A stretch of DNA of 64,000 nucleotides from Mizuhopecten yessoensis (lineage: Eukaryota): contig NW_018408900.1 of NCBI RefSeq assembly GCF_002113885.1, forward strand, positions 260,077 to 324,076. The letters run 5' to 3'. Position 1 is the first letter of the stretch. Every line of letters begins with the position of its first letter. Below the pieces are notes generated by a model, which saw only the letters and a list, made by a program, of their open reading frames with translations, was not told the DNA's origin and searched no databases. The translations under genes were made by a program, and so were the position numbers. Below, in pieces: positions 20,794-53,554 of this stretch.

Positions 20794-23609
20794 TCACAAT
20801 TTTGACTGTTTCTGAAGTATTTCTGGTCGTCTGTACATGGTAACAACAGCAGCACCCCCTATGCCAAAGTTGTGCTGGAGAGCAATTTTAGCCCCATCAA
20901 CTTGTTTAAGTTTAGCAGTCCCTCGCAACTGTGACACCAGCTCTGCACACTGCGCCAGACCTGTAATGAAATAAAAGCAACATTGCCTGTGGCTTCATAT
21001 TGTTCTAAACTACATGCATGTACAATAATATTTGTTAAACTGCAAATAACATCATTAAAAATTCTTGCTTTGGCTGTCCAAGAAATAAATAATTTAAGGA
21101 TATTGCGATCTCCACTACCCCCAGTTATTACTTTTCCAATGGCCCTTTAAACAAAAGTTAACAGCCCTTTTCAACTCATCACCCATATAAAATTTTGCAA
21201 TGACACTTTTAGTTATAACACAAACTCCTAGTAAGGACCTTTTTTGTATAATAGTTAATTAGAACAGGTAGATACATGTATAGTTTCACATAATATCTGG
21301 AATTCCCTGATTATTTCCAACATTTTAGCCTTAACAGACATAGAAAAAAAACATTAAGATATCCACTTTTTAGAATATCAAGGCAATATTTAAGAAGATG
21401 ACACAAATGTTGTTATACCTGTTGCCCCAATGGGATGACCTTTGGACTCCAGTCCTCCTGAAGGGTTCACGACCCATTTTCCACCAAGCTTGCAAATGTC
21501 TCCCCCATTTTTGTTTTTAATCCATTTTCCGTTGCGAATCAGATCTACACCTTTCCCTTCTTGTGCCAGCTGGAGAGCTTCATACATGAAGAGCTCATTA
21601 CACGAGAAGCAATCATGAACCTCTAGCACATCAACATCATCAGCAGTGAATCCAGAATCCTGGTAACAGCGCTTAGCTGCCTCCTTGGCCATACCGTAAC
21701 CAGACAGATCTTGGAAACTTCGTCCAAAGGAGGACTCCATGTCAGTGACCATGTGTTGTGCTATAATCTCCACAGCATGGTGCTGGAGGTTATTGGCCAC
21801 CACAAAATCCTCATTACACACAATGGCCGCCGCACCACCATCAGCAGTTGGAGCAGACATCCAAAATGTGATTGGGTCGCAAAGAGGAATTTTTGTTTTA
21901 ATGTCCTCGCGTGAAACAATCCTCTGTAATGCTGCTTTGGGGTTGTTCACACTCTGTTTATGGTTCTTATAGGAGATTTCCACCATGTCGTCTAGAGTTG
22001 CATATGGGTATTTCTTCAGGTATTCACGAGCTGCATATGCATATAATTTGACAACGTCTGATGTCATCTGATTGAGGCGTGGCTGGATGAGACCTGGCTC
22101 AGCTCCAATGTCCACCATGTGGTCCATATGACGCTTGACCGGTGATGTTCGGTCTGTGTACTTTTCAGAGAGACCTCTCTCCATCTTTTCAAAACCTGCA
22201 TACAAATAAAATTTAAAAAGATTTATGAAGGAGGGTCTATAATCAAACATGCTTGCGCAAAAACATCTATGAAAAGATCACCTGTGTTAACAGACTACTG
22301 CAATTTATGTTCCCTATTGAGTTGATTTCATTCAAATTCATTGTGAATTGAACCTGTATAAGAGACAACCTGCACTCTGAAAGTTTTGGCTGTATTTCCA
22401 TTTGTTCACAGTCAGCATCAAATACATTTTCATTATTTAAAAGGGAGATTTTTTTAGAAGATATTTCAGTAAAATTCAAATAAATCAATATTTTATGAAC
22501 ATCTATTTCTATAAAAATATGCCTGTAGTGCCTTAATGCAAATAGTTATCAAGTTATCGAAGGATAATTCATTCAGTCAATAAACTTAAAGACTGTTCTG
22601 TCACAACTTCACAACTGTTTAAAGTAATTGTTCTGTCACAAAATTTATCACCATTTCTTAAGATGTGAGTTATTTAATGACACAGAATAATAATTTATAT
22701 ATAAATAGTAAGATTAGAAAAGTACCAAGAGCCATGACACAGTCCTCCACTCAGCTCTGGACTAAACGTCTGGCCAACATTAGGGCACTGGATCCAGAGG
22801 AACAATTGTTGTTGACATTGAATATGGGGACGCCACTGAGTCCTAGGTTGTAAACAGCTCTCTGACCACTGGTTGGCTCTCCGTAACAGTAGCTGGCCAC
22901 CACAGCCTTCACATTACTGTATGGCAGTCCTGCATCCTTCAAGGCTGCCTCACCTCAGAAAGTAAAATAACAAATACATTTCCAATACATTTTTTATGTT
23001 CTCTATTAACTTGTTTTGCATGTAGTAAACTGCAATATATATGACAAAAATGTATATTTGCCTCTTCTATCAACCTAACTTTCAGAGCAATTATTTCCTT
23101 TAGTTCCATCTTTTATATAATTATACATGCAACTACAAGCCCACAAGCAGATTATGCAAAATTCTACTAGATTGATCTATTTTTCCATAGTAAATAATGA
23201 AAGTTTTCCCTTGCCCAAACATAAAATTTACTAGCCCGGGCATTTGACTAACAAAATTGTACATCCCTCGACACTGTGTAGCATTATATTATGGTGCACA
23301 GATTGTCATACTTGGAAGTTGCCTTTAGTGCAACATTTATGCTACTGAAATGACGGACAAGAAAATTTGTATACAGTGGACTGCACAGGTAAGGTATTAG
23401 TATGATACAGAAGAAAGACAGCTATTGTGACACACAAACGGCTAGATATAATTGTATATAAGTTTCTGTGAACATTGTGAATGATGATTACCTGCTTCCT
23501 TGCCCATATCTGGGTAGTCCCATGCTTTTGTCATTGGCTTCTCAAACTTGGTCACCCCTACTCCAACCACAAACGTTCTCATCTTGTTACGCAGTAAACT
23601 TGTCGCCAT
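20794..23609 (-). CDS. SCP2-thiolase (SCPx/P-44/DAF-22-like, thiolase domain only) with C-terminal SKL; one in-frame TGA at codon 107, so possibly a null allele or pseudogene
   Basis: Exons 23609-23492, 22953-22726, 22195-21419, 20960-20794 (430 codons including the terminal stop). Motifs [26 protein letters not shown] (catalytic Cys90), [48 protein letters not shown], ends QSKL*. TGA at 22753-22751. Confidence 0.9.
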
Positions 23610-24479
23610 TTAATGAGTGGTGGATGATTTAGATCTGGGAAAAGATGAAATTAAACTATTTATCATATAGGTGTATCAAATTACAATTTCTAGGATCATA
23701 TCATTCCCAAGAATCATCAGTTATCTTTTTCAACACTACAAGGGAAGAGACAGCTGTCCATTTGTTATAAGAATATATCCTCATCAATTTAAAGAAAACT
23801 GTCAGCCATCCCTCCCAACCATATCCAAAATCTGTCATAAAGTTATGGGTTTTTCCTTCGAAAGTACCAATAATCAGCCATGCAGCTTCTGTCAGCTGTT
23901 CCCTTTTTCCATTAGCTTACATAAATGTATGTCATCAATCAGTAAAGAGAAACCCAAACTTATACATAGGCCTGGACTGAAGAAAATACCATACAGTAGC
24001 TGTCTGAAGAAGTTTTGATCACTTGCCTACAGAAAACACTCTGGACATCAAGGATATAGAATTATTAAACATTTTCATAATACAGTTTTGCTGGTCGATA
24101 CATTCATCCACAACAAACGATCACATGAAAATAATGAAGAAAAAATTAGGGTAGATAAGTTGTTTATAAACATTTAATTGAATTCAGAGTTATCAATTAA
24201 ATATAGAGACTACAAAATGACTTTCATTTGAGAAAGCTTTAACTGAAATTTAGTTATCTTGCTATAATAAATTAGTTACCAATCAAACCATCTTGAAGTG
24301 ACTTCACTTATGTCACTCTCTTGTCAAATTCTAATAAACAATGCGAAGCATTATGAGCAAGCTATAGTCTACCACCTTCTCAAACTCCATTATCAAACAA
24401 GGTTACCGCAAAGCACTCCAAAATGTGCTGTCACACGTTGAACTAGGAGTTGTTTGTAACGTTAAAATATATGAAATAT

Positions 24480-25080
24480 TTGAAAAATGCATGTAGTATT
24501 GCATTAATGAAACAAAGGGGAATAATTAAGTCTTTATAATTGTGATACCACTCACTCCACTGATTCAGGAGGCATAACTCAGTAAATAACAGTCGGATAA
24601 TGATGGTTATCCAACTTGTCTTGAGCTTCATGGTAATTAACCTTCCCATTAAGTTAAAAGTTGATCTGCTGAATATTACTCGTGGTATATATAGAACAGA
24701 CTGTTTCAGTAATTGAATAAAGGGGCATAACTCCCTAAATTACTGTCGGATAATGGTGGCTGCCAAATTCATCAGAGCTTTTATTGTAATTAACCTTCCC
24801 ATGAAGTTTTAAGTTAATCCTTTGAAAAGTATTTGAGATATAGAGTGGACACTGTTTCAGCAATTAATTATAGGAGCAAAATTCCAGTTACAGATCATTA
24901 TCTAACTTGTCTGAGCTCTCATCATCAGTTCATGGTAATAATTAACCTTCCTATGAAGTGAATCTGTCGTTAATTTCTTGAGATATCAACAGGACACCCT
25001 GCACGCCCCCCTCCCACAACCTACCTGCTCACATGATAACATAATACATCTGTTACATTCCGACAAGCGTATACAAAAAG
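24480..25080 (-). mobile_element. Degenerate repeat-bearing interspersed element (Helentron-like)
   Basis: Three to four approx. 150-bp units (GGCATAACTC...GGTAATTAACCTTCCCATGAAGTT), ending ...CATGATAACATAATAC...GCGTATACAAAA. Confidence 0.45.
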
Positions 25081-25378
25081 GAAAAAGGGCAATAGCTGTT
25101 GAGACTCTGAATTCAGTATTTCTAGAGGTACTCATATACTCAAATCTGGAAATCGTATATGGCAGAGTATATGAGATGTGCCACAGTATGAGACCTGTAG
25201 TGAACAAAGGGCCATAACTCTGTATATAGCTGAGCACAAGACCTGATTTCAGATTTTTACATTTCACCACCCCAAAACTGGTACTCCAGTATGTCCAGAT
25301 AAAGTGATACACATATATGTATTGACAGCCTGTATGGACATGGTGCAAGGAGGGATGTCCACATATGATACCGGTAAT

Positions 25379-25821
25379 CAGGTTGGGGAAAACCGCAACT
25401 TGCGCAATACGCAAACTCGCCTTTTATACGCCAGTTGGAGTATGGATTTGTTACTAAAAATAACCCAAATCGCTTTAACAGTAACTTTTGCAAGACGTTA
25501 ATAAAAATCGCATTAATTTACGACAAGGTAAATAATATTTTGCTAAAAAAGGTTTACTGAAAGCGTTGGCTACTTAGAAACTTGATGTAACTTTACCGGA
25601 AGTATTGCATCTATTTTTGGTACTTTCCGACATGTAAATAAAGTTTATTTTTGCATTTGTATTATGTTTCGTGACTGAATAAATGCGACATGGACAAACA
25701 ATTTGAAATAGTTATGATTCAAGTGATTTTGGCTATTTTTAGTAACAAATCCATACCCCTATTGGCGTATTATAGGCGAATTTACGTATTATACGCAAGT
25801 TAGTGGTTTTCCCCGACCTTG
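25379..25821. mobile_element. MITE with approx. 95-bp imperfect TIRs
   Basis: CAGGTTGGGGAAAACC..GTATGGATTTGTTACTAAAAATA and TATTTTTAGTAACAAATCCATAC..GGTTTTCCCCGACCTTG, with TAAT on both flanks. Confidence 0.75.
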
Positions 25822-26411
25822 TAATGCTTCTGTGGGTTCTAACCGATAGTCAGTCACTATTTTTTGTCTTTCTTTTTTTTGGCAGAATTATAGTCAAAGG
25901 TCAGGTCATTATGAAATGGGGCTTCTTCTTAAGAATTGTTCATTTTTAGAGAGAAAAAACGTGTGAAGTTGGAAAAAGGATGAAACATGTTTTTTTTCAT
26001 TAAGATATTTAGGAAAAACTGTAAGAGCTTTGTATCTTCCAAATATTTATATGGAGTTAGTAAGTTACAACTTTCCCCGTTACACCCATTATTACATCTT
26101 CTTTCTTGAACAATAATGTCTGTTTTATTATCATTATTATTTATTTAATCGCTGCAACAACAACAACGTGTAAACTAGGCCTAATACTGTACCAGTTGCG
26201 ACGATATCTTTGTTGGATTTCAGATTACAACATCAACAGATCAAGCATAGCAATGTTGTTATGTTATTGACCAATATGTCCTCTCCTCAGAGAACGTTTT
26301 CACATCTCAGTAAGATTATCGTCGTATACTAGGTGCTTTTATAATAAAGATATTGCAAATCTAGCTCGGATCAACCAAGGAGCGATCTTTCCCTTCTTTT
26401 GCAATACTCAC

Positions 26412-26797
26412 CTGTCAGATTCTACACAATCATTTTAGCAGACAACTACTAGAGTGCTCTCCCCTTGATAAACACACTGGTTAGTATAATTTACCAATGT
26501 GTAGCATTTCGTTTTGTTATGATTACAAAACTTTTCTTTTCATTTCTCTTACAATAAAATTCTCAAATATAAACAAAATGATACGCAAGAAAATACATCA
26601 ACATGATTTTATGAAAAAAATGTTTTTAATAATATTGAAGCGATGTTTTTTTTTATTTCTTTCCGTACTTAAAAGTCTTGCTAAAAATAAGTATACAAAG
26701 ATACAAAGTCCGTTCCTACACTTGCCGGTACGTTGGGGACCTCGAGCTCTGTTGTGTAAAGTCAAATTGCTTATAAATTTAACATCAGACGCTAGAA
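26412..26797. promoter_or_regulatory. Probable thiolase/HSDL2 bidirectional promoter
   Basis: Consensus minus-strand donor CAG|GTGAGT at 26412 (candidate thiolase 5'UTR exon joining the acceptor at 23634) lies about 385 bp from the HSDL2 ATG. Confidence 0.5.
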
Positions 26798-29700
26798 ATG
26801 GCTGCAAACACTGGGTATGTATAGCATGGAACGGGTGCTAATGCTGAAATAAGATGAAATGAATGCTGCTTTAGATATGCTTTCATCGTAAATTATTTCT
26901 TGAAACTTTTTACAACAACTGTGAACAAGAATTTGTAAAGAAACTTTGGTCTTTGCACAGGACAGGGACGAATACATGAGAAAATTATACAAAGTTCCTA
27001 GGGTCGAAGTATCCTATTAATTATATAACACTTCGTACGGCCCATAATTTCCAAAGGGGCACATTGAGAAACGTTTTTATTTATGTCGTAAGTGTCATTG
27101 GCATTGAAATCGAAGTACACGCAACTAAGAGTGGAACCTGATTAAACCGACCGTAACGTAATTAAGGTGGCAGTACCCAAACCGAATCGGTACCCAAATC
27201 GGATCACTTTTTGCAAAAAAATACTTAAATGTGTCAACAAATCAGTTATAACAGAGACGTATTATACGTCTCTGGTTATAACAATGATGTAGTGTTAGAA
27301 TAGATAGCCATGCACCATTTTTTGTCTACAGGTAATTAAGTTTTTAAGTTCAAATAGCGCAAGAAAACGTAATTCAAACTCAAATGTCAATGTTTTGATA
27401 ACGTTTATAAAAAATGGTGCGTGCAATCTTTTTTGGACTATAGGAATAAATTCACACTAGAAATACTTTTTGCCATATAAATTCTAAAGGTCATCATAAA
27501 ATGTTAATATGCTGACAAAAAAATATTCATTTGAAGCGTACGATACTGCACAATTCAAGCCTTGATCCGTTTTGGGTCCCGACATTAGCAAAAACTGGAG
27601 ACGCTGATTGGTGACTATAAATATCTCAAGTGAGCCCAAGGTGCTAATTTGTTAGAACACCCATCAATATTCTTTCTTTGATACAACTATAAATGAATAT
27701 AATTCATCCCCAGATTTTTCAATGATTTAAAAAACTGAAGGTTTGGTGGTCCGATTTGGGTACTGTCACCTTACACTTTATGTTGAAAAATACCTCTCCA
27801 TACAACTCCTCAAACACTATGCTCCCAATTTCAACGAAATATATCAGATATGATAACTACTTTTTTGCAACCCTTTTTATGGAGTTATGGCCCTTTTTTT
27901 AAAAGTCCTTGTCCTGACAGTTTTTCCTAATCTACTAGGCCAATTTTAAAGAAAGTTTACGGATATGGCAACTGCCCCTACACGTTGTGCTTTCAAGTCG
28001 TGCTTTTTCATTTTGACCCTTTTAAAAGGAGTTATGGCCCTTTGTTGAAAAAAACTTTTTCTGCCTCCTAAACTACTGGGCCAATTTCAATGAAAGTTTA
28101 CAGATATGGTAATAAGCCCCTAATGGTGTTTTTTCATATTAACCTTTTTTTAAGGAGTAATATCCCTTTGTTAAAAATCTTTGTCCTGACATCTCTTCTT
28201 TACTACTAGGACACATCTCTTCCTTTACTACTAGGCACATTTCAGGAAAATTGTTCATCAGGGCTAACAAGATTTCATTTGCAAGTATGTTTAGGCATTG
28301 AGAGGGAGTACAGGAAGTATGTGAGTGATTTGTATACTTAAATAAGTGTACAGCTCAATCAATAAAGAAATCATTACTGATGGGAGACTATGGATTGCTT
28401 TGCAATGCTCTGCCTTAGTAAGACTTTAGCTTACAGTTTTGGTTTATATAGGAGCAGGTGTATTAGTTAGCCTTTGGCTTAGAGTTCTAATTGACATTGA
28501 TGTAAAAGTTCACTTGGCAATAAGTTATAACAATTGAAATAGGTTGGGAACATCTTCTGACTTTGAAAGGATGTATTGGATTATGATGCATCTTCTGAGT
28601 TCAGATCAAACAAGAGTAAATGATCTTTATAAAACTTCCATAAGAACAACTATGAAACAAGTTATTCCAACTTATTTTAATCAATCTTGTTGGTCCATAT
28701 TGTGTATCTTCATTTCAGTCTAATAATATTGACTAAGGTTATTATGCAGAATGCACAGCAGAATAACAAATAAACATAGTAAATTCTGTGCTTCATCAAT
28801 CTTTATTTTCCAGTATTATTTTGCCAACCAAGTATAGTTGAAATCTGATAATAGTTAAGAAGGTTGTCACATTGAAATAACAATGAACAACAGGGTCAGA
28901 CAAAGAGATGGATGAACGCCATTCCAGACATGGGTATGCCTTATTCTTACCTGTACAAAGATGAACCTACAGAATCAAAAGAAAGTTTTTATCGGTTCAG
29001 TATTTCGAGGATTGGTTAGGAATTTCAGTTTATCCTGTCAAGTCAGATGATGTTGAAAACCTGTTAAATGCAAAAAACAATTAAGATTCTCCTTTCAAAT
29101 TTATTTTGTAGTGTTTTAGCAGGGAAGACTCTGTTCATCACAGGGGCAAGTCGTGGTATAGGTAAAGCCATAGCCCTGAAGGCCGCAAGGGATGGAGCTA
29201 ATGTTGTCATAGCAGCAAAAACGACAGAGCCACATCCCAAACTACCTGGCACCATTTACACTGCAGCCAAGGAAGGTATGCTATATATGACACTTATGTT
29301 TGCACTAATTAGTAAAATAAATGTTTAACAGGGAAGAAACAGACATAAAAACTAGTTGCACACTGATCATTAAATCATTCCATTTATTATTGCCCGCTTT
29401 CACCGAAACGGGGGATATTGATTTGGGTTTGTCCGTCTGTCTGTCTGTTTGTCACGCTTCGTTTCCGTGCAATAACTACAACAAATGTTAACCGATTTTC
29501 TTCAAACTTGGTCACCGGGTAAAATGCCTTATGGGCTCGGCCAAGCTTGATGACCACTTTAATCGGACTCCATTCGGCAGAGTCATTATCTGCATGCAGT
29601 TTCCTCTTAATAACTCTAGCAAATATTAGATAAGGGGGGGGGGGGGGGGGGGGGGGGGTTCTTCAAGTTTCAAGCTATACATTATGTCTCCACAGAACGA

Positions 29701-32700
29701 TACTCACATGTTTAAACTTAACCTCAATAATGTTTATCTACAATATGCCCTGAAAGCGGGGGGTATAAATTCCACGAACTTGCTTGTTAATAGTAATAAC
29801 ATGCCTGGTAATAAGCCCATCCATGACTAGGATCAGGAGTAATCTAACCCATACACATGAGTTTTGTGTATAAGTTTGTGTACTTCTTGTCGAGTTATTA
29901 TGTTGTTCTCTGGTTATTGCAGTTGAGGATGCAGGAGGAAAATGTCTGCCCTGTGTGGTAGATATCCGACAAGAAGAGCAGGTACGGAAAGCAGTAGAGG
30001 AAGCAGTGGCCAAGTTTGGAGGGATTGATATCCTTATCAACAATGCCAGTGCTATCTCCCTCACTGGCACACAGGCAACTGGCATGAAGAAATATGACCT
30101 GATGATGAATATCAATGGCAGGGGCACATACCTCTGGTGGGTGTTATCTCTCTATATTTACTACGTATGGCATTGCCACTATATAACCCTTCCAAATTCA
30201 GTTGGCATTGATCATATAGGCTATGAATGCCATGAACCGATAATACCGATTGTTGACGTCATCATTATTATGATGTGATGATTGTTACGTTGGATACCAC
30301 TTACCCTCCACTGGCGATGGCTGTTCTATTCATTAAACAAGCATACACGGTACATGCATTATTTTAACTAAATGCTGAAAAAAATAAGTGTAAAATAAGT
30401 TTAGGAGATGAACAGATTCCAAAAAATGGTAAATATACATGCAAGTATTGAACTGCTTTTTGTTGGCATTCATAGGCAATATGAATTCCAAGTGGACAAA
30501 GGCAAATCCAACTAAAAGCAGTTCAATGCTTAGTGTTTGACAGCGGCAAAAATAGCTTTGTTTCTGTTAAAAAATACCTTAAATATTGTAAATGCTAATT
30601 CCATGATATGTACATGTATTACTTTATATAGGATATTTTGGGCAAGTAAATTTCATTTTTGGGGAATTGTTTTTTCCCCTGCCCACGAATTGTCTGTATT
30701 ACATTGGTACCAGGTGTATACATCAGGTTGAAAAAATATGTAATCTTTATTTTTGACCACTACTGGCCAAATATCACCTTGATTTCTCTTGGTTTTTAGA
30801 AGAAGTTGTTGAAAGTAAAAAGTTGACGCCAGACAGACAACGGACGCCGCACCACGGCATAAGCTGAGCTAAAAATGAGACAATGTTTTACTTTAATGTG
30901 ATTAAAATTTTTACAGTGTCTTAAAATATTATGTCTTTATTTCAGTTCACATGTGTGTATGCCTTACCTCCTGAAGAGTTCTAATCCTCACATTTTGAAC
31001 ATCAGTCCTCCCCTCAACATGAACAAGGATTGGTTCAAAGGCCATGTTGGTGAGAATCACTCAAATATTTATTTTTTTAAATATATTCAATCAATGGGTA
31101 AAGACTTTTTGCAAGATAACCAGATTTCTAGGTCATTTAATATTAATGCCATTGTATCACTTCACTATTTCTAACTTTGTTTTCATCAAGTACATGTACT
31201 TTGTAGGTCATAGTTATCTAGAATTTGGGTATTGACCATATCCCCCAAAACTCCTATCAAAGGTTTTGGTGAATTCTTGCAAACAAAATGTAGATTATAT
31301 ATATTTTTAATTTCTATTTTGTTTCTCTTTTAAATTTATTGCATATATTTCATCACTAGCTGATACTGAAATTACAGTAATTTCAATAAATATAGTCCGA
31401 ATTATTCTGAAGTTTTATCGACTTTTTTTTATATCGGTCTGTCGTCGATTAATGACAGACCGAAATAAAAAAAAAAATCAAATAAACGTCAGAATAATTC
31501 GGACTAAGTAGAAACTTGATTGATAGCTATATATATTGTCAGTTGTCGGCATTAAATTCAATGCAAATACTAGCTGTTGATGCCAATTATATCTTACTAA
31601 ACTTGGAGCACAATAACAATTTTGAAAAGTGTTGAATAAACAGCTGTTCATCCATACCCCCTGAAACTTCTGTGTGAAATACATTTGAAAATCAAATGTT
31701 GCAACTGATTAAGTAAACATTGAAATGGGAAATGATCTCAATGTTGATTCTAGAGGGAAGGTACAATTTATTTTCTTTTGGTGTCCAAAGTTCAATAATC
31801 ATGAAGCTGATTTAGGGAGTTGCTTGCTGATGATTGGTAAATTCATACCCTAACTTGACTATTTAGGAAGTACTGGTAATATTTTACAGCCTACACTATG
31901 GCCAAGTATGGGATGTCCATGTGTGTCTTGGGGATGGCTGAGGAGTTCAAACCTGAAGGTATTGCTGTGAATGCTCTCTGGCCAAGAACAGGTAAATTTC
32001 AAAAGGTTTAAACAAATTTAATGTCCCATCATCTTCCTGAATATGTATTCCACACCCTTGTAGGTAAATCAGCTTATAATCTAATTAAAATAAACCTGTA
32101 GAGTTAACCTTTATGTGGAAAATTATATCGAGTCATAGCATGATTTTTCAAGGTACATTCATTTGTTCATTGTTCAGGTGTACCCTGGGACATCACAGCT
32201 GTTTCACCTGTCTTACTTTGGACAAAAGATCTATCTATACACCTCATATAAATATAGCTTCACCTTTTGATATGGTAATCATAAGTCTACATATCAATTA
32301 AGTCTTTGTGGTCTATATATCAAGTCTTTGTGGCCTATTTAATTGTCATTACTCATTATCTGCTATATTTAAAGCTTCCTGTCTTCATTGTTTCAATGTT
32401 TTGCTGATTAATACAAAATGCTGTAGCTTGTGTAATTACATTTTCTAGCTCACCAGGTCCGAAGGACCAAGGTGAGCTTATGCCATACTGTGGCGTCCGT
32501 CATCCGTCCGTCAACAATTTCTTTAAACGACTTCTTCTTTTTAACTACTGATTGGAATTTAATTTAATTTGACTGGATGCATCCCTAGGTGGTGGGGATT
32601 CAAAATTGTACAAATGGTGGAGCTGACCCCCCAGGGGGCTGAGGGGTGGGGCCATAAGGGGGCAATTTGGCTATATTGCTACAAACGACTTCTTCTGTAG

Positions 32701-35700
32701 AACTATGCCATGGATATCGATCATATTTTGTCGGAAGCATTCATGGGAGGGAGGGATTCAAAATTGTACAAATGGTGGGGCTGACCCCCCAGGCTAAGGG
32801 GTGGGGCCAAAAAAAGTTTATTACATGGAAATGGTTGAGATCCCACCATAAAACCATATATACAATTGCTGAGTATACAAAGAAGAATGCACATTTGCTT
32901 CCAGGATGGCCCTAGGGTCTGGTCCCACCCTTTGAGACATAGTCCCTGGGCCATAACTTTAAAATGGTTAAGATCCCCACCCCAAAACTATATATACAAT
33001 TGTTGGGCATAAAGAGACGAATGCAGTCATGATATTAGAATTGACCCCAGGGTCTGCCCCACCCTTTCAAACTTAACCCTTGGGTCATATTTTTGAAACA
33101 GTTGAGATCCCCACCCCAAAACTGTATATACAAATGCTGGTCAAAAAGAGAATAATGCAGTCATGATATTAGAATTGATCCTGGGTTCTGGCCACAACCC
33201 TAGGGACCCCGTTCCTGAGTCACAGTTTAGAAACAGTTGAGATCCCCACCCATAACCATACATAAAATTGCTGGGCATGAACAATCTAATTCAGATATGC
33301 TACAAGGATTGGCCTTGGGGTCTGGCATATTCCCTTGGATCTCATTTGGAGAATATTTTGCCATGATTGCTTAGATATCCAGGTGAGCGATACAGGCCCT
33401 CTGGGCCTCTTGTTCTTGTATGTTTGCTTTACTTTGAGCTCCTATTCTAATTCTAAAAATGACATATTTTTTTCACTGGATCTACTTTTTTTTTGAAATA
33501 ATACAACCAGAAAGAAAAGAAAAAAAGAAACTTCTAAATAAAATAGGCATTTGGAAGCTGTACATGACCGAGTTTGATCTGAAACAGCTGTCTGCCCATT
33601 TACTTAAATGTGTTGGTATTTTCCAGCCATCTACACTGCTGCCATGGAGATGTTAGGGGGTGGAGATGAGGTAGCTAAGCAGTGCCGCAAGCCTGAAATC
33701 ATGTCGGATGCTGCCTATGTGATGCTGACCAAAAACAGCAAATCCTACACTGGGAACTTCGCCATTGATGACGAAGTACTCACAGCAGAAGGGATCAAGG
33801 ATATGGAGCAATACAGTTGGGTCAAAGGTACAAAACTAGGGTCACATGTATCGTTATCTCATATATTAGAATCAGAAACAGACCTAAGCAAAGTGTTAAA
33901 CAACATGCTGAAAACTCTTTCTTGAACAACACAGCAAATCTACCTGCACACAGATAATATAGAGTTACAACAACAAACATAGTTCTATAGCACACCAGGT
34001 GCTGTACCCGGCCTTCCCACTCAAGTTCCTTTCTTTTGTCATCCATGACTGACTTGGTCACCACTTGATGGATAGCCCTATAGCGCTATCTCCAATTCCA
34101 CATACCCCCATCAATAAATGCATGATGTTACCCAAATCATAAGATTTGACCTCAAATGTACTTTTGACCAAAGTGCTGCTCTCTATTGATACCAACTGTC
34201 TTACATGTTATAAGATTGTCTCATTCTTTATAAGCCCATCAGATGGTGGACTATTCAAATCACCCTGCATCCGTGGTCCATCTGTCCCATCATTTCGTCC
34301 GTCATTCCATCATTGCGTCCGTCCTTGAAAAATTTTGTTTGCATTATTTCTCAGAAAGTACTGGAGGTATCTTTCTTAAATTTCACATGAAGGTTCCCCA
34401 TGATCCCTAGTTATGTATATCTTTTTTTTGGGACTGATTGCAAATCCAAAATGGCCGATAGGCAGCCATCTTGAATTTGAAAGTTAAAGTTTGTAAGCAC
34501 TATTTCTCAGAATGTACTGGAGGGATCTTTCTTAAATCTTTCATAAAGGTTCCCCATGATCCCTAGTTTATGCATTTCAAATTTTTGGGATGATTGGAAA
34601 ACCAAGATGGGTGGCAGGTGATCGTATTGAGTTTGGGGGTAAACGTTTTTTAGCCCTATTGCTCAAAAGGTCTTGTATGGATCTTTCTCAAATTTCACAT
34701 AAGGGTCCTCTTGTTCTTAGTTATGCATATCAAATCATATTGGCTGGCCATCTTGTTACAGTTTAAGCTTCTTATCGCTATTTCTCAGAATTTACTGGAG
34801 AATTTTTTCTCAAATTTGATATGTATGTTCCACTTGGTCCTGAGTTGTGCATGTTAGCTTTTGAGGTTGATCAAAAGGTTGATTAAGATGGCAGATAGAG
34901 AAAAGATCAAACTTACATAGAACTAATGAAGATGGTACTATGGTGGGTGCCAAGATCCGTAGCTCTGGGATCTCTTGCCATTAATTACCTAATTTACAGC
35001 CCATTTTGTTTCAAAAGGAACTTTTAAAGGGAGTAGTAACAACAGATTTTCTAATCCTATACCTCTGTTGAAAGAATCGTTTCAGACGTAGTATGATTTC
35101 CTCATGGTCCTAAGAAATGTTTCTTTCAAGTTTTATTTGAAATGATTTGTTACTTCTGATTAGCTTTTGCATTGTTTTTATCTTCACAGAATCAGCCATA
35201 TAGATTTTGACCAAACTTGGCAAGAGTTCACATGGCCCTAAACACATAATAATACCATGTTAGCCACATTCATGAATTTACTGATCATGAAGTAACACTA
35301 ATCAATGCATTTAAGTTGTCTGTTAATAAAGTACATGTATCAGATTTAGCAATACAGATCTTAATGACCCGTTTTCTAGTGACTACAGGAGTTCAGGCTT
35401 GGAAAAATTAAAAATTCTTGATTCAAGAAAGATTTTAGAGAAAATTCATGACGCAGGGCCCTGGTCTAATTAAAGAAAAATTCTGTACCTTATTTTAGGC
35501 AGCAAACTTCTACCCGACTTCTTCCTTGATGTTGATGCCAACACACTGAGGGAGCAAATGTCTGAAGGTGGTGCCACGCCTGCTTTTGGCGGAACCAAAG
35601 GGGGTGCTGGACCAGCCAAGACCTTTGACGCCATCCAGACTATGCTTAGTGAGGAACTAGTAGGCAGTATCGGAGGTGTCTTCCAGTTCAATTTATCAGG

Positions 35701-36719
35701 TAAGTGGTCTCTTGGCAGATTCATAAAAACGAGTAAATAATATAGTCTTGTTATTGGTCTCTGATATCTCTGCACAATGTTTAGTATTTGATGGATGTCA
35801 GGAAGGACTGTTGTCAGAATATTGTGACAGGGTGGAGTGTTTATGTCCAGGTTAAGCAAAACAAAAAAATACTTGTTTCTGCTAACGTTCCAATTTCATT
35901 TTGGAAAATACTTTCACTACGCTTATATAGAGCAGACTTCTGACTTTAACAGTGCATTATCACTATATGATAAAATCTCTTAGGGTAGGCACAAAAATCT
36001 AAGGTAGGTAGTTTGCGGAAAACATTTTTTCTATTTGGCCTTTTGACATTTCAGTGAGTGATCACTTAAAGTGCCCTTTGAGTGGCCTGTCATCTGTGGA
36101 CATATGGCCTTAGTCTTTGTTCAGCATATCAATTTTAATGCAAGATGTACATTTGTTTGAAGTTTGAAACTAATTCAACCTTACTACCTGGGTACACTGT
36201 ATACAAGCCTGTTCTTGTGTGCTAATGCCTGATGACATTACAATAATTAACTACACTACACTGTTTCTCTGTAATGAGAGCAAGTTTATCATGACTAAGA
36301 CTGGTTGTATACAGTATTTCCAGTGTGAAGGTAGTGTTAATTTTAGGCTTATACTAGTACAGATTTCACATGTTAGATTTGTCACTTAGGCAAACGTTGC
36401 CGGCCATACATTATATCAGTAGCGTCCATCTCAGCTGGTTGTCGGGCAATGTACCTGAGTTTGTTTTTGTGTTGTAGGGACTGATGAAAGTACATGGTTC
36501 ATCAATTTGAAATCTGGCGAGGGTAGTTTGGGACCTGGTGAGCCCCCAATGGGAGCTGACTGTACAATGAGCATGGACAGTGCTGACTTTCAGAAGATGT
36601 TCGGAGGAGAGCTCAAACCTGTTGCAGCCTTTATGTCTGGCAAACTAAAGATCAAAGGAGACATGGCTTTGGCCATGAAGCTAGAAAAACTCATGAACAA
36701 AATGTCACCAAAATTGTAA
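26798..36719 (+). CDS. HSDL2: Hydroxysteroid dehydrogenase-like protein 2 (SDR + SCP2 domain), 8 exons, about 414 aa
   Basis: Exons 26798-26814, 29112-29275, 29923-30136, 30946-31049, 31890-31991, 33627-33827, 35499-35699, 36478-36719. Motifs MAANTG, TGASRGIG, PHPKLPGTIYTAA, NNASA, NISPPL, catalytic YTMAK, PDFFLD, SCP2 domain (AFMSGKLKIKGDMALAMKLEKLM), ends SPKL*. Confidence 0.95.
27163..27773. mobile_element. TIR element, possibly Kolobok-like, non-autonomous
   Basis: TTAA-GGTGGCAGTACCCAAA ... TTTGGGTACTGTCACC-TTAC. It adjoins, and is probably inserted in, an older GAGTTATGGCCCT-repeat element that extends to about 28420. Confidence 0.65.
29388..29788 (+). mobile_element. Helentron-like element containing a G25 run
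   Basis: CCCGCTTTCA ... TGAAAGCGGG subterminal IR, (GTCT)n tract, G run 29634-29658, ends CTTGTT. Confidence 0.5.
30443..30531. repeat. Short inverted-repeat element
   Basis: AAGTATTGAACTGCTTTTTGTTGG ... CCAACTAAAAGCAGTTCAATGCTT. Confidence 0.6.
31393..31506. mobile_element. Palindromic element, family C (diverged copy)
   Basis: TAGTCCGAATTATTCTGA...TCAGAATAATTCGGACTA; aligns with 14596-14717. Confidence 0.8.
32441..33414 (+). mobile_element. Helentron-like (HINE-type) element with tandem core repeats
   Basis: TTTTCTAGCTCACCAGG..hairpin..GGTGAGC, (CGTC)n, internal repeats, end CCAGGTGAGCGATACAGGCCCTCTGGGCCTCTTGTT. Confidence 0.75.
34228..34977 (+). mobile_element. Helentron-like element with approx. 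160-bp internal repeats
   Basis: GCCCATC ... GGTGGGTG IR, CGTCC tract, repeated TATTTCTCAGAA..GGATCTTTCT.AAATTTCACAT, end GATCC..GGATCTCTTG. Confidence 0.6.
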
Positions 36720-37690
36720 AGTATAGTTTTCACAATGCTAGCCTGACACAACGATGCCGAGTGAAGAAGGCACTTTTCAGGGAAGATAACCAAATAATTA
36801 TCATTTCTGTTAAGGGAAGATTTGAATATTTGTGATACAAGATTTTTTAATCTGACCCAGACATTTGAGAAAGGGTGTAAAATGATTCCAGTTTAAATAT
36901 GTCCTTCAAATGAGCATGAAATGAGAATTTCTTTAGACAAGTACATGACATGTATTAAGACCAAATATTGATCTTGCAGTTTTTACAATCTTTGAAATCG
37001 CTCTTTAATCCTTTCCAATCCCACAATCTTTAAATAGATATTATTACAGATTAATTATATATCGGACCATAATTTAAGAATGGATAGTTTTATGGTTGTT
37101 TTTTATCTGCTATAGAAGGTTTTGGTTGTCTATAGATATGAAGTGCATGAACAAAATGTTTGTATGTGTAAATTTGTGGCAAGTGTAAGTGAAGTTTTAG
37201 TACTGGATTTGTGATAGGTTTACTAAATACTTATACATATGTATAAATAGTGCTGAATGATGGTGTGTTTATCAAATATTTATATCAATCGAGTCAAATA
37301 TTTCTATTTATATATTAAGAGTTCATGATTGAAAGTTTTTATTTAATTAATGCATTGTATATATGTGATCATAAGGCAGTAGGATTTGTAATGCTGTATT
37401 TCATTTGAAATTTCTAATCAAAGCACGCACTGCTAATGCTGACAATTTTCATTGATATATCATCAGATGATTTTTGTACAAATAAAAATTCAAGATGCAT
37501 ATGACTGCAGTTGTTTTTAATTTTATAAATCCTTTGATTCAGTGTTCAGAATAAGGGCCTTCGCTAAGTTGTTGGGGTAATTCATCACTTTCATGGACCT
37601 TTCTTTTGTGTATAAAGACAGTGTTCTTCTCTGAAAAATTTGAAAGAATTGGGATGAATATGTTACATAAAAACGAAATCTGCAACAACT

Positions 37691-46600: not shown

Positions 46601-48357
46601 CGTGAAAAGGGGTTATTTACAGTGATTAGTTGGGGGGGGGGTTGTGATTTTTTGTGCAAGGTATAGATAAAAGATAAAACTGGGGTATGTTTTAGAGTGT
46701 GATGAGGGCTTCAAGGGCTGCATAGGGTAAGTGTGCCTTGAAGTCCTCTAGTGTTGTGCATTGTACTGCTGCTATGGGTAGGAGATTCCATTGTGTTATT
46801 GTGTGTGGAAAAAATGAATATTTGTAGGTGTCCTTTGTAGCAGATATGTGTTTGTATGCATGAGGGTGTGCATGTCTGGTTTGATGGTCTACCGGTGTGA
46901 GTATATGTGTTGGGTTTATGGCTACTGTTTGGTGTATAATTTTGTGAAAAAGGATAATTCTTGTGTGACAGCACCGTGTTTGTAGTGATGGCCATTGTAG
47001 TTTTTTAATCATTTCTGTTACGGAGCTAGTGTTGTGGTATCTGTTGTGTACGTAGCATGCTGTTCTTCGTTGTGTTTTTTCTATTTGTTTAATTTGGTTT
47101 GTGTTGTGTGGATCCCAAATGGAAGAGCAGTATTTAAGTTTTGGCCTAACTAGTGCTTTGTATGCGTGTTCTTTTATATGTGGTGAGTTTATTTTTAAGA
47201 TGCGTTTTAGAAAACCTAGAGACCTATTGGCATTGGCTGTAATGTTGTTAATATGTTTGTCCCATCATAGGTTATTTTGTAATGTAAGGCCTAAATATTT
47301 GCTGGATTCTACTTGTGTAATGTGTAGTTGTGGAGTTTGTAGTCATAGTGTATTTTGTTGCGTTTCGGTGTAATGTTGAGTATGTTGCATTTGTCAGGGT
47401 GAAATTTCATTAGCCAGTCCATCTCCCATTGTCCTGTTGCTTCAAGGTCTTGTTGTAGTTTTAGTGTCTTCTTTGTTGTTTATCGTCTTGTATATGATGC
47501 CATCGTCTGCAAATAGTCTAAGTGTACTGTATTTCATGTATTCATGGAAGTCATTGATGTAGATGAGAAAGAGGATGGGGCCCAAACAGGTTTCTTGAGG
47601 GACTCCAGATGTTACTTTTATTTTGTCTGATTGTTTGACCTAGAGTACTACTGTTTTGGTGCGGAATGAGAGAAAGTCTGTACTCCATGCGTGTGTGTTC
47701 CCTGTTATCCCGTAGTATTTGAGTTTGTATTGTATTCGTTTGTGTGGGACTTTGTTGATCGCTTTGGCAAAGTCGGATCATAATGATGATGTCTGTCTGT
47801 TTGTTGATGTTGTTGTTTGATGCGAGATCATGTATGAATGTGGTGAGCTGTGTTTCACAGGATATGGAAGATCTAAAGCTGTGTTTACGTTGTAGGTCAT
47901 ATAATATGTTGTTGGTCTCCAGATGTGTCATTTTGGCGCTTGTTATGATGTGTTCCATGAGTTTGCATGTAATGCAGGTCTTGTACAATCTGATTAAAAC
48001 CAGATGTTTGATTCCACTCCCGATACTCTACGTTCCGGTCAAAGGATCTTTGGTTTTAATCAGATTGGTTCTTGTAAGGAACGGAGAGATTTATCCTTCT
48101 ATCCCTTTTGGTAACTAAGATGCCAACTCTTATAATGGGGATGGAAAAACATGAGTCCAGGCATTGTTATGAGTCATTGTCATTTACCATGTGAAACGAG
48201 GTGTCGTTTTCCACAGGAACGTCTGTACACAGACCCGAGCAAATACAGCGATTCCCGTCGCACAAAGAATAGAAGCCACTTCTGTCGATGTTGTACCAAC
48301 ATGGTCGCTAACGAACTGCTCGTGCAGCTCTTTATACGATGCATTTCTAGCCGACAT
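37691..48357 (-). CDS. PIGW: GPI inositol acyltransferase PIG-W/GWT1, 7 exons, about 477 aa
   Basis: Exons 48357-48188, 44306-43902, 41270-41117, 39858-39605 (GC donor), 39057-38913, 38250-38175 (or -38169), 37920-37691. Motifs [99 protein letters not shown]. Confidence 0.93.
41688..43070 (-). mobile_element. Helentron-like element with a near-identical 324-bp tandem duplication
   Basis: AACAAGAGGCCCATGGGCC hairpin at the left; (GACG)n and AGGTCACTTGAG..CTCAGGTGACCTAAAAA at the right; units start at 42107, 42431 and 42755. Confidence 0.8.
45067..45440 (+). mobile_element. tRNA-derived SINE-like dimer (degenerate)
   Basis: Two units AGTGACCAG.TAGCTC.TTTG.TT.GA.TGT...GTTCA...TCTGGC.GTG.ATTT..CTC.CCTGTTA with A/B-box-like motifs; no intact cloverleaf. 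Confidence 0.4.
46526..47984 (-). mobile_element. 5'-truncated, decayed non-LTR retrotransposon (RT domain) in PIGW intron 1
   Basis: [60 protein letters not shown]; frameshifts and stops; (AAG)n 3' tail near 46526-46540. Confidence 0.9.
47986..48067. mobile_element. Short palindromic element, family B
   Basis: CAATCTGATTAAAACCA ... TGGTTTTAATCAGATTG. Confidence 0.65.
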
Positions 48358-48961
48358 TTCGATTATCCATTCAACTGGGGGGCTGACATTTTTTATTATG
48401 ATGATCGTACTCTCCAAGACGCTCGAATTGATTATCAAATGGCGGGAAATTTAAATGCATTTTTATCGCACGTGGCGAGTTATGTTTACAGGATCTACAT
48501 TGGAATAAAAAGGTATTGAGTGTATTATGATAAACTCGTAGTCATTCTTTCTTATTTTATCTTAAAATATTAAACTGCGATTTGATATTAAAATCCCACC
48601 TCGATGGTTGTAAGCACAGGGACATGATAATGTGTTACAGCACGGAATTGTTATCCAAGTCCGTGGTTACAGCTTTATGAGTTATTTTACCTGTTTTAGC
48701 AATTCGCAATTAGGGTTAAGATCGAATTCATTGAAAAGGGCCACCCCAATGCGTATGTATAAGATTCTTATCTTTTGAATTTATTTCGTTTTGAAAGAGT
48801 GAAATATAGCCGAAAATCAACGATAACAATTCTTTAACAAAGTCATAATTTTTGCATCATCTTTGTAGAGACACGCTATCATAAATAACTCAAATATAAT
48901 TTGAATGTTCAGAAATTGGCGCTTTAATTTTGCATAAGAAAAGTCCAGCAGATTTATATCT

Positions 48962-51900: not shown

Positions 51901-53554
51901 GGCCACGCCCTAACACTATCACTGAGGTTATCAGGTCATGCCCTAACACGTCCACTGAGGTTATTAGGTCACGCCCTAATACTATCAGTGAGGTTATCAG
52001 GCCACGCCCTAACACTATCACTGAGGTTATCATGTCACGCCTTAACACTATCACTGAGGTTATCAGGCCACGCCCTAATACTATCACTGAGGTTATCAGG
52101 CCACGCCCTAATACTATCACTGAGGTTATCAGGCCACGCCCAAACACTATCACTGAGGTTATTAGGTCACGCCCTAACACTATCACTGAGGTTATCAGGC
52201 CAGCCCTAACACATCCTAGTGAAGCAGACTTTTTTGTGTCGAAGACATGTAGGGCTCTTTTCGCGTATACGGTTCAATCGGTTTGTCTGTGTATAAAAGT
52301 AACATTTTCGGGTATAAGCAGTCTTGCAAGGCTTTGTCAAGGCTCGCCTGAAAGCAGCATCAGATTATTAAGTCCCAGTGCTGTATTTTATAAACAAACA
52401 ACTCTTGTATAACCGGTTCAACCGTTTGGAACGCGATAAACGAATGCAGCCTATGACACTTTAAAAAGCCAAGTGTTTGCTCTTAATGTCATATATCTAC
52501 GCTACACCTTTGGATTTCTCACGACATAGTCAAAAACTCACGGTTAGTTATTTGACTGGTTCCAGACAACAAACCAATTTCAAGGCTGATCAACAGAGGT
52601 ACGTGTGATAGTCGGTCATCTTTACCGTTACGCTGCTGCAGTATTATCTTATTTTATTTTTAACCAAAACATCACTCTGAGATCACAGGTATGCAGCATT
52701 CCGTAAAAAGTTCCAGACTCGTCTGCACGCATCATCCGCGCAAGGTGTGTAATCCTTAATTTCCAAAGATGATACAATCTGCCAGTATATTAACAGTTGC
52801 ATATTTTCTCGGAGTAGACACGAAATTATCGAAAAATTTCAAATCGCGAAAACTCGTACATTAGCAGTAGATTTGTAGTTAAATCGAAATCAACTTGCAT
52901 TCAAATTCAATAAGTGAATTTTCATAACAGCAACGTTAAACATGTCGGATGATTAATATCTGTCGTGAGGCGTACCTTCCTTGGCTGCAGTGTAAATGGT
53001 GCCAGGTAGTTTGGGATGTGGCTCTGTCGTTTTTGCTGCTATGGCAACATTTGCTCCATCCCTTGCAGCCTTCAGGGCTATGGCTTTACCTATACCACGA
53101 CTTGCCCCTGTGATGAACAGAGTCTTCCCTGCCAAGGTATTGCTGAAACGGAATCCGAACTATTTAATTATAACCTGATAATGTACGTTGATTAATGTAT
53201 AACTCGACACTCCTTCCAAAAACCGTAATTTACATCAATTTCATATTCATATTTTGCATGTTGACAAATCAATATCATCTCGTCATCTGATTGGTTTCGA
53301 CACGTCACGAGTTGATAATATTTAAGAAGTACAGTGCATAAAATATTGTTTTAAGGAAAAATAGAGCTATGAAATACAAACTTACAACTATAAGTATATA
53401 ATACGAGCCGACTTTGAAAGGATAGTAAATATTTTCAGAATAAATAATGTATTAACGGATAATTATGTCTAAGCATCTTTTCGAATACTATAATCTGGTT
53501 ATAACTGAAGTTCACACATATAAAAATAATGCAAAACCTGGATTGTGTAGACAT
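48962..53554 (-). CDS. HSDL2-like paralogue, SDR domain only, 7 exons, about 292 aa
   Basis: Exons 53554-53538, 53142-52976, 51168-50955, 50602-50499, 50251-50150, 49685-49482, 49032-48962, with the same intron positions and phases as HSDL2. TGASRGIG, NNASA and YTMAK are intact. Ends LDFFLEGEIPGQELIQPA*. Confidence 0.9.
51340..52212. repeat. 33-bp minisatellite AACACTATCACTGAGGTTATCAGGCCACGCCCT
   Basis: About 10 homogeneous units at 51860-52210, more diverged units to the left; lies in intron 2 of the HSDL2-like gene. Confidence 0.95.

Follow-up and report, generated by a model that had tools for sequence, protein, structure and literature searches.

Why should a stand-alone SCP2-type thiolase gene lie head-to-head with the gene for the unrelated enzyme HSDL2 in the scallop Mizuhopecten yessoensis? 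The question arises from a 64,000-nucleotide stretch of the genome (contig NW_018408900.1, positions 260,077 to 324,076; hereafter the window, in whose numbering all positions are given), for which an earlier note had proposed a peroxisomal cluster of three genes, the thiolase, HSDL2a and HSDL2b. All three genes were found where the note had placed them. The thiolase-HSDL2a pair is real, whereas the three-gene cluster is not.

Two divergent genes and the gap between them

The thiolase is encoded on the minus strand by coding exons at 23609–23492, 22953–22726, 22195–21419 and 20960–20794 (429 codons). The first coding exon (23492–23634) contains the ATG at 23609 and is preceded by the acceptor of a 5′ UTR intron, the second (22726–22953) includes codon 107 as well as the NNNCS motif with the catalytic Cys90, and the largest (21419–22195) holds the HDCF and GHP motifs together with two inserts typical of its clade. 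The last (20794–20960) ends in QSKL, a PTS1, directly before the stop; the protein thus has its own SKL end and no SCP2 domain, as had been read from the sequence before. The joints of the three coding introns, including that of the last exon, are present in 4/4 RNA-type runs. A non-coding first exon, at least 26412–26459 in extent, is attached through joint 23634/26412, which marks a 2,777-nt 5′ UTR intron and occurs in two of the four RNA-type runs (X12 and X13, with short sides of 28 and 48 nt, respectively).

HSDL2a occupies eight exons on the plus strand (26798–36719; 414 aa) and is identical to database protein P0356. Its first exon (26721–26814 as minimum 5′ extent, ATG at 26798) is joined across the first intron (26815–29111) in three of the four RNA-type runs (X12, X13 and X15). 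Exons 2–6 (29112–33827) encode an SDR domain of the PRK08278 family with the motifs TGASRGIG, AAKT, N-x-S and YxxxK, while exons 7–8 (35499–36719) encode a linker and an SCP2 domain (PF02036) and end in SPKL, in agreement with the SDR-SCP2 architecture and PKL end described earlier. The PRK08278 score, obtained on the Pecten orthologue P0144, is 444 bits (cut-off 250).

The distance from the UTR donor at 26412 to the HSDL2a ATG is 386 bp, which bears out the previous estimate of about 385 bp. RNA contigs extend to 26459 on the thiolase side and to 26721 on the HSDL2a side, leaving an AT-rich gap (26460–26720) between the divergent first exons; contigs do not mark start sites, so its 261 bp are an upper bound. 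A bidirectional pair is recognized by divergent transcription from 5′-ends separated by less than 1 kb, and at most 261 bp separate the RNA-covered exons here. The gap is a putative bidirectional promoter, which the thiolase and HSDL2a likely share.

The third gene does not belong to this arrangement. HSDL2b is predicted on the minus strand as an open frame of seven exons with GT-AG sites (53554–48962; 292 aa). It is an SDR-only duplicate that shares the motifs TGxxxGxG, N-x-S and YxxxK with HSDL2a, ends in IQPA and lacks both the C-terminal SCP2 domain and the PTS1 by which HSDL2 is recognized. Its stop lies 12.2 kb from that of HSDL2a, with exons of the unrelated gene PIGW (GWT1; 39571–44332, minus strand; PF06423 on three pieces) in between. 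The nearby SDR-only paralogue is therefore present as reported; its membership of a peroxisomal cluster is not borne out, and it lies outside the conserved pair as far as the comparisons reach.

At codon 107 of the thiolase (22751–22753, minus strand; 802 nt upstream of the last junction), the window reads TGA. DNA run X1, a possible source sample of the window, carries the same TGA within a 3,001-base match to it. GGA (Gly) is found in X7, X10 and the RNA-type run X13, that is, in three of four runs, and Gly occupies this position in 52/54 aligned thiolase relatives. The in-frame TGA is an allele, present in at least one animal, and accounts for the truncated 317-aa database entry P0123. An assembly error was ruled out by the TGA in X1 (with the reservation that X1 may be the source sample) and a fixed pseudogene by GGA in X7, X10 and X13, while selenocysteine or readthrough is unnecessary given GGA in other individuals. 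In a farmed species, such a naturally occurring nonsense allele provides a ready-made loss-of-function test.

Relationships of the two enzymes

SCP2-thiolases of type-1 are defined by HDCF in place of NEAF, retention of GHP and absence of the CxG catalytic Cys (PMC7682436). Among 54 aligned thiolases, the nucleophile Cys90 (CxS/T motif) and HDCF are present in all and the GHP His in 53; the C-terminal loop of the scallop protein reads HNFGIGG, with the CxG Cys absent. PTS1-like ends (SKL, AKL, ARL or SRL) occur in 46/54, the remaining eight being variants such as ARM and AHL. The best PDB match is the zebrafish SCP2-thiolase type-1 (6HRV, 6HSJ; 420 bits), with which the scallop enzyme shares NNNC, HDCF and GHP, and it scores above the PRK08256 cut-off. 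It differs from SCPx in having a PTS1 of its own and two inserts, each of about 10 aa, and in lacking the fused C-terminal, PTS1-bearing SCP2 domain that characterizes SCPx; in the representative search, every SCP2 domain found belonged to a protein outside the two-insert set. Grouping of the clade with SCPx was rejected (p-AU 0.0008) in a quick tree (LG+G4) holding only four SCPx-type rows, one of them stitched from tblastn pieces. The scallop genome also encodes a separate SCPx gene on another contig (C5318), which has many exons, in contrast to the three coding introns of the thiolase, and an MFE-2-type gene elsewhere. On these sequence comparisons, the thiolase is a member of a separate, old eukaryotic SCP2-thiolase clade and not a cut-down SCPx.

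The C. elegans proteins DAF-22 and DHS-28 offer a functional likeness, a thiolase-only protein partnered with an SDR-SCP2 protein in peroxisomes, and are described as corresponding to SCPx and the MFP2 dehydrogenase, respectively (PMC3837297). The analogy with SCPx and DAF-22 on which the earlier note leaned is weakened by the rejected SCPx grouping and by the scallop's own SCPx and MFE-2-type genes. Nematodes do not appear by name among the 120 best thiolase matches, which suggests that DAF-22 falls outside the clade. DHS-28 belongs to the MFE-2 type, of which the scallop has a gene elsewhere, whereas HSDL2 is of the PRK08278 type. An acidic residue after beta-2 marks NAD+-type SDRs. All 50 aligned HSDL2 sequences lack it and carry Arg20 and Ala-Lys-Thr at 41–43, that is, an NADP(H)-type fingerprint, and a Ser-Tyr-Lys triad was found in HSDL2. 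The consecutive dehydrogenase step proposed before is not supported in its DHS-28 form, and HSDL2 appears unlikely to perform it.

By sequence (403 bits) and tree, HSDL2a is the orthologue of human HSDL2 (PDB 3KVO), with the same combination of SDR, SCP2 and PTS1; SKL, AKL, PKL or ARL ends are found in 43/50 aligned HSDL2 proteins. Human HSDL2 is described as binding NADP/H, sterols and fatty acids and as having no known substrate (PMC11141617), and the family as conserved from bacteria to people, with bile-acid and lipid phenotypes and a substrate still lacking (PMC11141617, PMC12979188). The human and mouse proteins are reported to be largely mitochondrial (PMC3583843, PMC11141617), the human one partly peroxisomal, and no vertebrate gene of this thiolase clade was seen among the best 120 matches.

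Four of the 28 two-insert representatives carry a fused RPE65/CCO (apocarotenoid-oxygenase-like) domain, whose closest solved structure is apocarotenoid-15,15′-oxygenase (227 bits, versus 100 for lignostilbene dioxygenase). These fusions, three of them ending in SKL or SRL, are known as predicted proteins and sit on another branch of the clade than the scallop thiolase. No CCO gene was found on the scallop contig (0/20 matches).

Linkage in other animals and in bacteria

Thiolase and HSDL2 have consecutive accessions or locus tags (gap ≤2) in 11/17 other molluscs, both bivalves and gastropods, accession order being a proxy for adjacency that conveys neither orientation nor distance. These species include scallops, unionids, Mya/Mactra, a limpet, abalones and a periwinkle. 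The two genes share a contig in 18/19 species, a brachiopod and a nemertean among them; in H. asinina, Pinctada and Lineus the linkage extends only to the same chromosome, and in Patella caerulea the orthologues lie on different contigs. No cnidarian is among the species with both accessions. Metagenome contig L098 preserves the arrangement itself, with the thiolase ATG at 7649 (minus) and a candidate HSDL2 ATG at 8054 (plus), head-to-head and 405 bp apart. A placement of L098 inside the sampled molluscs was rejected (p-AU 0.011; control run), and no piece of TMEM69, PIGW or RAD17 was found within its 14 kb, a short stretch. Two bryozoan-like contigs (L097 and L093) show no HSDL2 exon in the 2.3 and 1.0 kb upstream of the thiolase, distances to be read against a scallop UTR intron of 2.8 kb. 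The unrelated neighbours also form pairs, thiolase-TMEM69 and HSDL2-PIGW, and the whole block may simply rearrange slowly.

Three of the four observations that the earlier note had named as telling against the pair can now be addressed, and none does so: the first exons are close rather than separated by a distant thiolase start site, the break in the thiolase is not fixed, and adjacency, as judged from accessions and from L098, extends beyond this species.

The partnership is not universal. Vertebrates and arthropods retain HSDL2, whereas the 120 best thiolase matches name neither group; HSDL2 can therefore do without this thiolase. No thiolase-HSDL2 fusion was found among 145 representatives compared. 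HSDL2-like SDRs occur in 4/101 and 37/101 sampled genomes of two bacterial phyla. An SCP2-type thiolase is adjacent to such SDRs in none of 20 bacterial loci, one of which has a thiolase of 28% identity about 3 kb away. Conversely, one of 80 bacterial SCP2-thiolase loci has an HSDL2-like SDR, these 80 being ordinary SCP2-thiolases (49–56% identity, generic motifs) and not members of the two-insert clade. No family recurs next to the bacterial SDRs at E 1e-12 among 80 neighbouring ORFs (20 of 44 places, plus locus L080). A metagenome pattern scan returned 10 loci, with L089, beside an unassigned neighbour, as the only prokaryote-like member. A link of HSDL2 to AtuG, a Pseudomonas protein of acyclic terpene use, found no confirmation, HSDL2 being mentioned in none of 20 listed papers, and was set aside.

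Possible roles of the pair

The genes of the mitochondrial trifunctional protein, HADHA and HADHB, lie head-to-head, share a promoter and encode subunits of one complex. Like the scallop genes, they are a conserved linked pair of a dehydrogenase-containing gene and a thiolase gene, and they are listed among the conserved, co-expressed pairs of animals (PMC3514665), where the thiolase-HSDL2 pair may already figure. They combine a classical thiolase with an NAD+-linked hydratase/dehydrogenase, whereas the scallop pair combines an SCP2-type thiolase with an NADP(H)-type SDR-SCP2 protein. Moreover, HADHA-HADHB is mitochondrial, with co-expression and binding shown, whereas the scallop proteins have PTS1-type ends. 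A complex prediction for P0001 with P0144 returned 'no answer' and a score of 0.00 in two runs, in which alignments were unused and controls unfolded, and it speaks neither for binding nor against it.

The reading we favour, at a little under even confidence, is a shared-promoter pair of peroxisomal enzymes likely acting on methyl-branched, isoprenoid-type acyl chains from the algal diet. It builds on observed features, namely the geometry, the splicing, the intact catalytic motifs, the PTS1-type ends of both proteins and the consecutive accessions. One bidirectional promoter would co-regulate the two genes and resist breakage, and both proteins would enter peroxisomes. There, the thiolase would cleave 2-methyl-3-oxoacyl-CoA, as SCP2-thiolases do, and HSDL2 would carry out a carbonyl/hydroxyl redox step linked to NADP(H) and would lend its SCP2 lipid-binding domain in trans to the thiolase, which has none. 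The weakest step, possible though somewhat unlikely, is that carotenoid-cleavage or phytol-type acids are among the substrates. As to the 'sterol or branched lipid' substrate suggested earlier, an indirect hint favours carotenoid or isoprenoid fragments over sterols. Counting against the favoured reading are the split orthologues of Patella caerulea, the retention of HSDL2 in groups in which this thiolase was not seen among the best 120 matches, the lack of a fusion among the 145 representatives and of recurring bacterial neighbours, the absence of a CCO gene from the scallop contig, the place of the CCO fusions on another branch, the largely mitochondrial location of human and mouse HSDL2, and the nonsense allele.

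The conserved layout could instead reflect regulatory lock-in, in which a promoter came to be shared long ago and any break in the short gap is costly, the two jobs being unrelated or merely part of one 'peroxisome/fasting' programme. Hundreds of unrelated gene pairs are reported as linked across animals, mostly 5′-5′, with 448–492 retained in Lottia (PMC3514665). The persistence of HSDL2 where the thiolase was not seen among the best 120 matches, the lack of a fusion among the 145 representatives and of a bacterial operon pattern, and the broken pair in Patella all point the same way. However, two PTS1-type proteins that act on lipids by family, with complementary domains (a thiolase without SCP2 and an SDR with it), would be improbable in a random pair, and we regard lock-in as unlikely, if a serious contender. 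Shortening or remodelling of cholesterol or phytosterol side chains, like that by SCPx in bile-acid synthesis, seems quite improbable. HSDL2 depletion is reported to lower cholesterol-to-bile-acid conversion in mouse cells (PMC11141617), phytosterols are converted to cholesterol in the bay scallop (PMC12350143), and the thiolase's closest solved structure is the zebrafish SCP2-thiolase; nevertheless, canonical SCPx and MFE-2-type genes are already available for that job, and the sole fusion partner seen for the clade is carotenoid-oxygenase-like. We find it harder still to credit a biosynthetic direction, modelled on the thiolase/reductase pair PhaA/PhaB, in which the thiolase would join acetyl- or propionyl-CoA to an acyl-CoA and HSDL2, using NADPH, would reduce the 3-oxoacyl-CoA. 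The NADP(H) fingerprint and Ser-Tyr-Lys triad would suit a ketoreductase acting on the thiolase's product, but SCP2-thiolases are described as degradative (PMC7682436) and fusion with a cleavage oxygenase suggests catabolism.

Extended beyond the scallop, the favoured peroxisomal reading becomes a distinctly unlikely but consequential proposal: that a second lineage of SCP2-thiolases, overlooked so far and ancient enough to be present in protists, fungi, sponges, cnidarians and spiralians, and HSDL2 might form a peroxisomal module degrading carotenoid-cleavage products and similar isoprenoid acids, CCO-fused in some protists and promoter-tied in molluscs since the bivalve-gastropod split. If true, orphan human HSDL2 would gain a substrate class, and the breakdown of apocarotenoids in animals a route that has been missing. 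Should the link prove purely regulatory, the pair would simply join several hundred other conserved pairs. The head-to-head partner and its CCO fusion elsewhere yield a short, testable substrate list for HSDL2. A distinct thiolase clade is also brought to notice, which databases label merely 'sterol carrier protein 2-like'.

The divergent gene pair in the scallop genome

The window (positions 260077-324076 of contig C5573; 36% G+C) carries, in order, a likely RAD17, DUF3429/TMEM69, the stand-alone SCP2-type thiolase gene (minus strand, 20794..26459), the SDR-SCP2 gene HSDL2a (plus, 26721..36719), PIGW (minus) and the HSDL2 paralogue HSDL2b (minus, 53554-48962). The name RAD17 is our presumption from resemblance, with no Pfam match for three short pieces. 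Thiolase and HSDL2a form a real, transcribed, long-conserved, head-to-head pair of known enzyme families. Once spliced, HSDL2a encodes exactly database protein P0356, which like entry P0123 (below) is labelled Mizuhopecten yessoensis, a pectinid scallop. Four coding exons (429 codons) encode the thiolase, which lacks an SCP2 domain and ends in SKL, just as the earlier note had read; the largest exon is 95% identical to a Pecten maximus protein. All three coding introns appear as canonical joints in four of four RNA-type runs from four studies, the RNA type of three of these runs being guessed.

A further joint, 23634/26412 (assembled runs X12 and X13), leads to a non-coding thiolase first exon 2.8 kb upstream, and the HSDL2a first intron is joined in X12, X13 and X15. 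The distance from the thiolase UTR donor to the HSDL2a ATG is 386 bp, in agreement with the spacing of about 385 bp proposed earlier. Because RNA contigs extend to 26459 for the thiolase and to 26721 for HSDL2a, the transcribed parts lie at most 261 bp apart, a value taken from assembled contigs, which reveal neither start sites nor expression levels; the first exons being this close, the contigs gave no sign of the distant thiolase start that would have counted against the earlier note. By run depth, high-copy repeats fill both long first introns (24452-25971 and 26884-28707), unlike the low-depth gap between the two first exons.

Thiolase codon 107 is an in-frame TGA that is real DNA in run X1, though X1 may be the source sample. 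The codon is GGA in X7, X10 and X13 (three of the four runs compared) and Gly occupies this position in 52 of 54 aligned relatives; the TGA is a nonsense allele, and fixation of a pseudogene was not seen. The three RNA-type runs besides X13 each have one or two differences in this exon, with the codon-107 position unlisted. Since the nonsense codon sits 802 nt 5′ of the last exon junction, the allele would be a likely target of decay. Database entry P0123 (317 aa) begins 3′ of the TGA and corresponds entirely to the C-terminal part of the thiolase product. A second coding variant, a 6-nt in-frame deletion at 21550-21555 in the largest exon (codons 329-331), was observed in X7.

HSDL2a and HSDL2b were the only HSDL2 genes found in the scallop genome. 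HSDL2b has an open frame of 292 aa, comprises an SDR only and ends in IQPA; it is a fast-evolving duplicate that the tree keeps apart from the HSDL2a group of scallops and puts, with weak support, among pteriomorph bivalves. As it lacks both a PTS1 and an SCP2 domain, and PIGW intervenes, the idea of HSDL2b as a third peroxisomal member of the cluster was abandoned. Exon 2 of HSDL2a (29112-29275, plus) and of HSDL2b (53142-52976, minus) share 95.7% DNA identity, whereas exons 3-6 share 65-78% and the intron after exon 2 aligns poorly, which points to likely gene conversion between these paralogues, inverted to each other and separated by 24 kb. In two RNA runs, positions 29184 and 29199 carry the HSDL2b-type letter, which may reflect alleles or chimeric contigs. 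HSDL2 architecture is variable (P0262, P0269, P0142, P0143 and others): the Pinctada model is doubled, likely two merged tandem genes, Lingula has two SCP2 domains, and longer forms still occur in further sequences. Inside the PIGW region, broken reading frames at 46695-48027 (minus) resemble a LINE-type reverse transcriptase, the one piece scanned being without a Pfam match. A first exon at 62677-63135 (plus), encoding an RGG-rich N-terminus and the beginning of a KH-like motif, is one we take to be probably of DDX43, also without a Pfam match on that piece.

Adjacency of the two genes in other species

Accession numbers run locally along a scaffold, and the accession or locus-tag order of both genes served as a neighbourhood proxy, which gives no orientation, in 19 other species. 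Thiolase and HSDL2 were consecutive or within two in 11 species (11 of 17 molluscs, about six lineages), namely Pecten (XP_033738567/569), Argopecten (XP_069127181/182), Ylistrum (XP_060077442/441), Potamilus (CHS0354_029033/032), Sinanodonta (ACJMK2_042701/700), Mya (XP_052777095/096), Mactra (KAL4235784-5/783), Lottia (ESP05633/632), Haliotis rubra (XP_046571707/708), H. rufescens (XP_048256585-6/587) and Littorina (KAK7100662-3/664), and adjacency is thus not limited to M. yessoensis. Four species have the genes near each other (accession gaps of 7 in Tegillarca, 9 in Babylonia, 15 in Lingula on a 1.02-Mb scaffold, and 49 in H. cracherodii), three on the same chromosome only (Lineus 277, H. 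asinina 450, Pinctada 996), and Patella caerulea on different contigs; one contig carries both in 18 of 19 species.

One of ten loci from a clade-specific pattern scan, the metagenome contig L098, carries both genes in spliced form and in opposite directions: the thiolase on the minus strand from an ATG at 7649, HSDL2 on the plus strand from a candidate ATG at 8054. The careful tree grouped L098 with non-mollusc spiralians (support 88/81). Placement inside the sampled molluscs was rejected (p-AU 0.011), the molluscs without L098 already forming a weakly supported group (77/64). Because cephalopods, chitons and aplacophorans are absent from the sampling, a position outside Mollusca is tentative.

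The thiolase lineage and its oxygenase fusions

The thiolase carries SCP2-thiolase type-1 fingerprints, as defined in PMC7682436, and by sequence is a member of that type, not an SCPx orthologue. Two inserts set it apart from SCPx, its motifs lying about 76 and 49 residues apart vs. 66-67 and 39; the second was present in 90 of 91 measurable matches among the best 120 listed. Named organisms among these 120 include molluscs, an annelid, a brachiopod, nemerteans, a bryozoan, cnidarians, a sponge, fungi, amoebozoans, a cryptist and Perkinsus, and no arthropod, nematode or deuterostome. A quick tree supports the clade (SH-aLRT 94), and a grouping of the animal sequences in it with SCPx was rejected (p-AU 0.0008). 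Since an SCPx-like gene with many exons lies elsewhere in the scallop genome (contig C5318, with a weak SCP2-domain match downstream), as do MFE-2 hydratase exons (C3748), the canonical route is staffed and the thiolase-HSDL2 pair is additional. A tight two-insert group without PTS1 on metagenome contigs (P0067, P0070-P0074, P0076-P0078, P0084, L089) is sister to a Goniomonas sequence and possibly reflects eukaryote-to-bacterium transfer.

Of the 150 best representatives at 50% identity, 72 were measurable and 28 of these have the insert. In none of these 28 was an SCP2 domain seen (19 of 28 scanned against Pfam; 145 of the 150 compared with HSDL2 domains), and in four, P0393, P0398, P0411 and P0421, the thiolase is fused to an RPE65/carotenoid-oxygenase domain. 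The first, second and third are complete, keeping the thiolase motifs, four His-containing motifs and SKL/SRL ends, and P0421 is incomplete. The nearest solved structure to the P0398 oxygenase domain is apocarotenoid-15,15′-oxygenase (227 bits; lignostilbene dioxygenase 100); for P0393 the lignostilbene model of NCBIfam scores higher (112 vs. 77 bits), both far below cut-off. All four are predicted proteins within the two-insert clade, on a branch other than that of the scallop thiolase. PF03055 matches in the scallop genome (C76588, C76750, C5461, C5552, C76706, C4470) comprise at least nine intronless near full-length copies, some in tandem, and two spliced genes; judged by these matches, the carotenoid-oxygenase family is expanded.

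HSDL2 chemistry and readings of the pair

Aligned HSDL2 sequences have a Ser-Tyr-Lys active site, and all 50 carry Arg20 and Ala-Lys-Thr with no acidic residue, which under the usual SDR rule is the NADP(H) pattern. Human HSDL2, an enzyme with no known ligand, binds NADP/H, sterol derivatives and fatty acids in purified form (PMC11141617). HSDL2 mobilises triacylglycerol in vitro (PMC12979188) and is mostly mitochondrial and partly peroxisomal (PMC3583843), and DHS-28 is the counterpart of the MFP2 dehydrogenase (PMC3837297). Given this NADP(H) pattern and binding, and DHS-28 being of MFP2 type, HSDL2 is unlikely to be a standard β-oxidation dehydrogenase, and a DHS-28-like dehydrogenase step consecutive to that of the thiolase is not supported. 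A better guess is an NADP(H)-linked carbonyl/hydroxyl step, with the SCP2 domain acting in trans.

For this pair, whose geometry, splicing, motifs and accession adjacency were observed, we tentatively favour a shared promoter co-regulating two peroxisomal enzymes on methyl-branched, isoprenoid-type acyl chains. One promoter would drive both genes, both proteins would be imported into peroxisomes, both would act on such chains, and their reactions would be coupled. The thiolase-oxygenase fusions may offer an indirect substrate clue for HSDL2, an orphan human enzyme. The long-conserved arrangement could instead reflect regulatory lock-in with no shared chemistry, which we consider rather unlikely. 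Sterol side-chain work by the pair seems improbable, and operation in the reverse, condensing/reducing direction, which would fit the NADP(H) pattern, more doubtful still.

In layout the thiolase-HSDL2 pair is like HADHA-HADHB, one of the conserved pairs of PMC3514665, and it may itself be listed there. The literature, covered by title and abstract opening and with subscription papers mostly outside, yielded no paper on the pair, the two-insert clade or a thiolase-carotenoid oxygenase fusion, and the thiolase sub-lineage is apparently undescribed. Passages of PMC12350143 mention molluscan SCP2 and neither HSDL2 nor peroxisomes. Bacterial neighbourhoods of HSDL2-like SDRs and SCP2-thiolases gave no functional clue. 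At one of 80 loci, an actinobacterial one (L080:7995-10006), an ordinary SCP2-thiolase is followed after 20 bp by an HSDL2-like SDR (48% identity).
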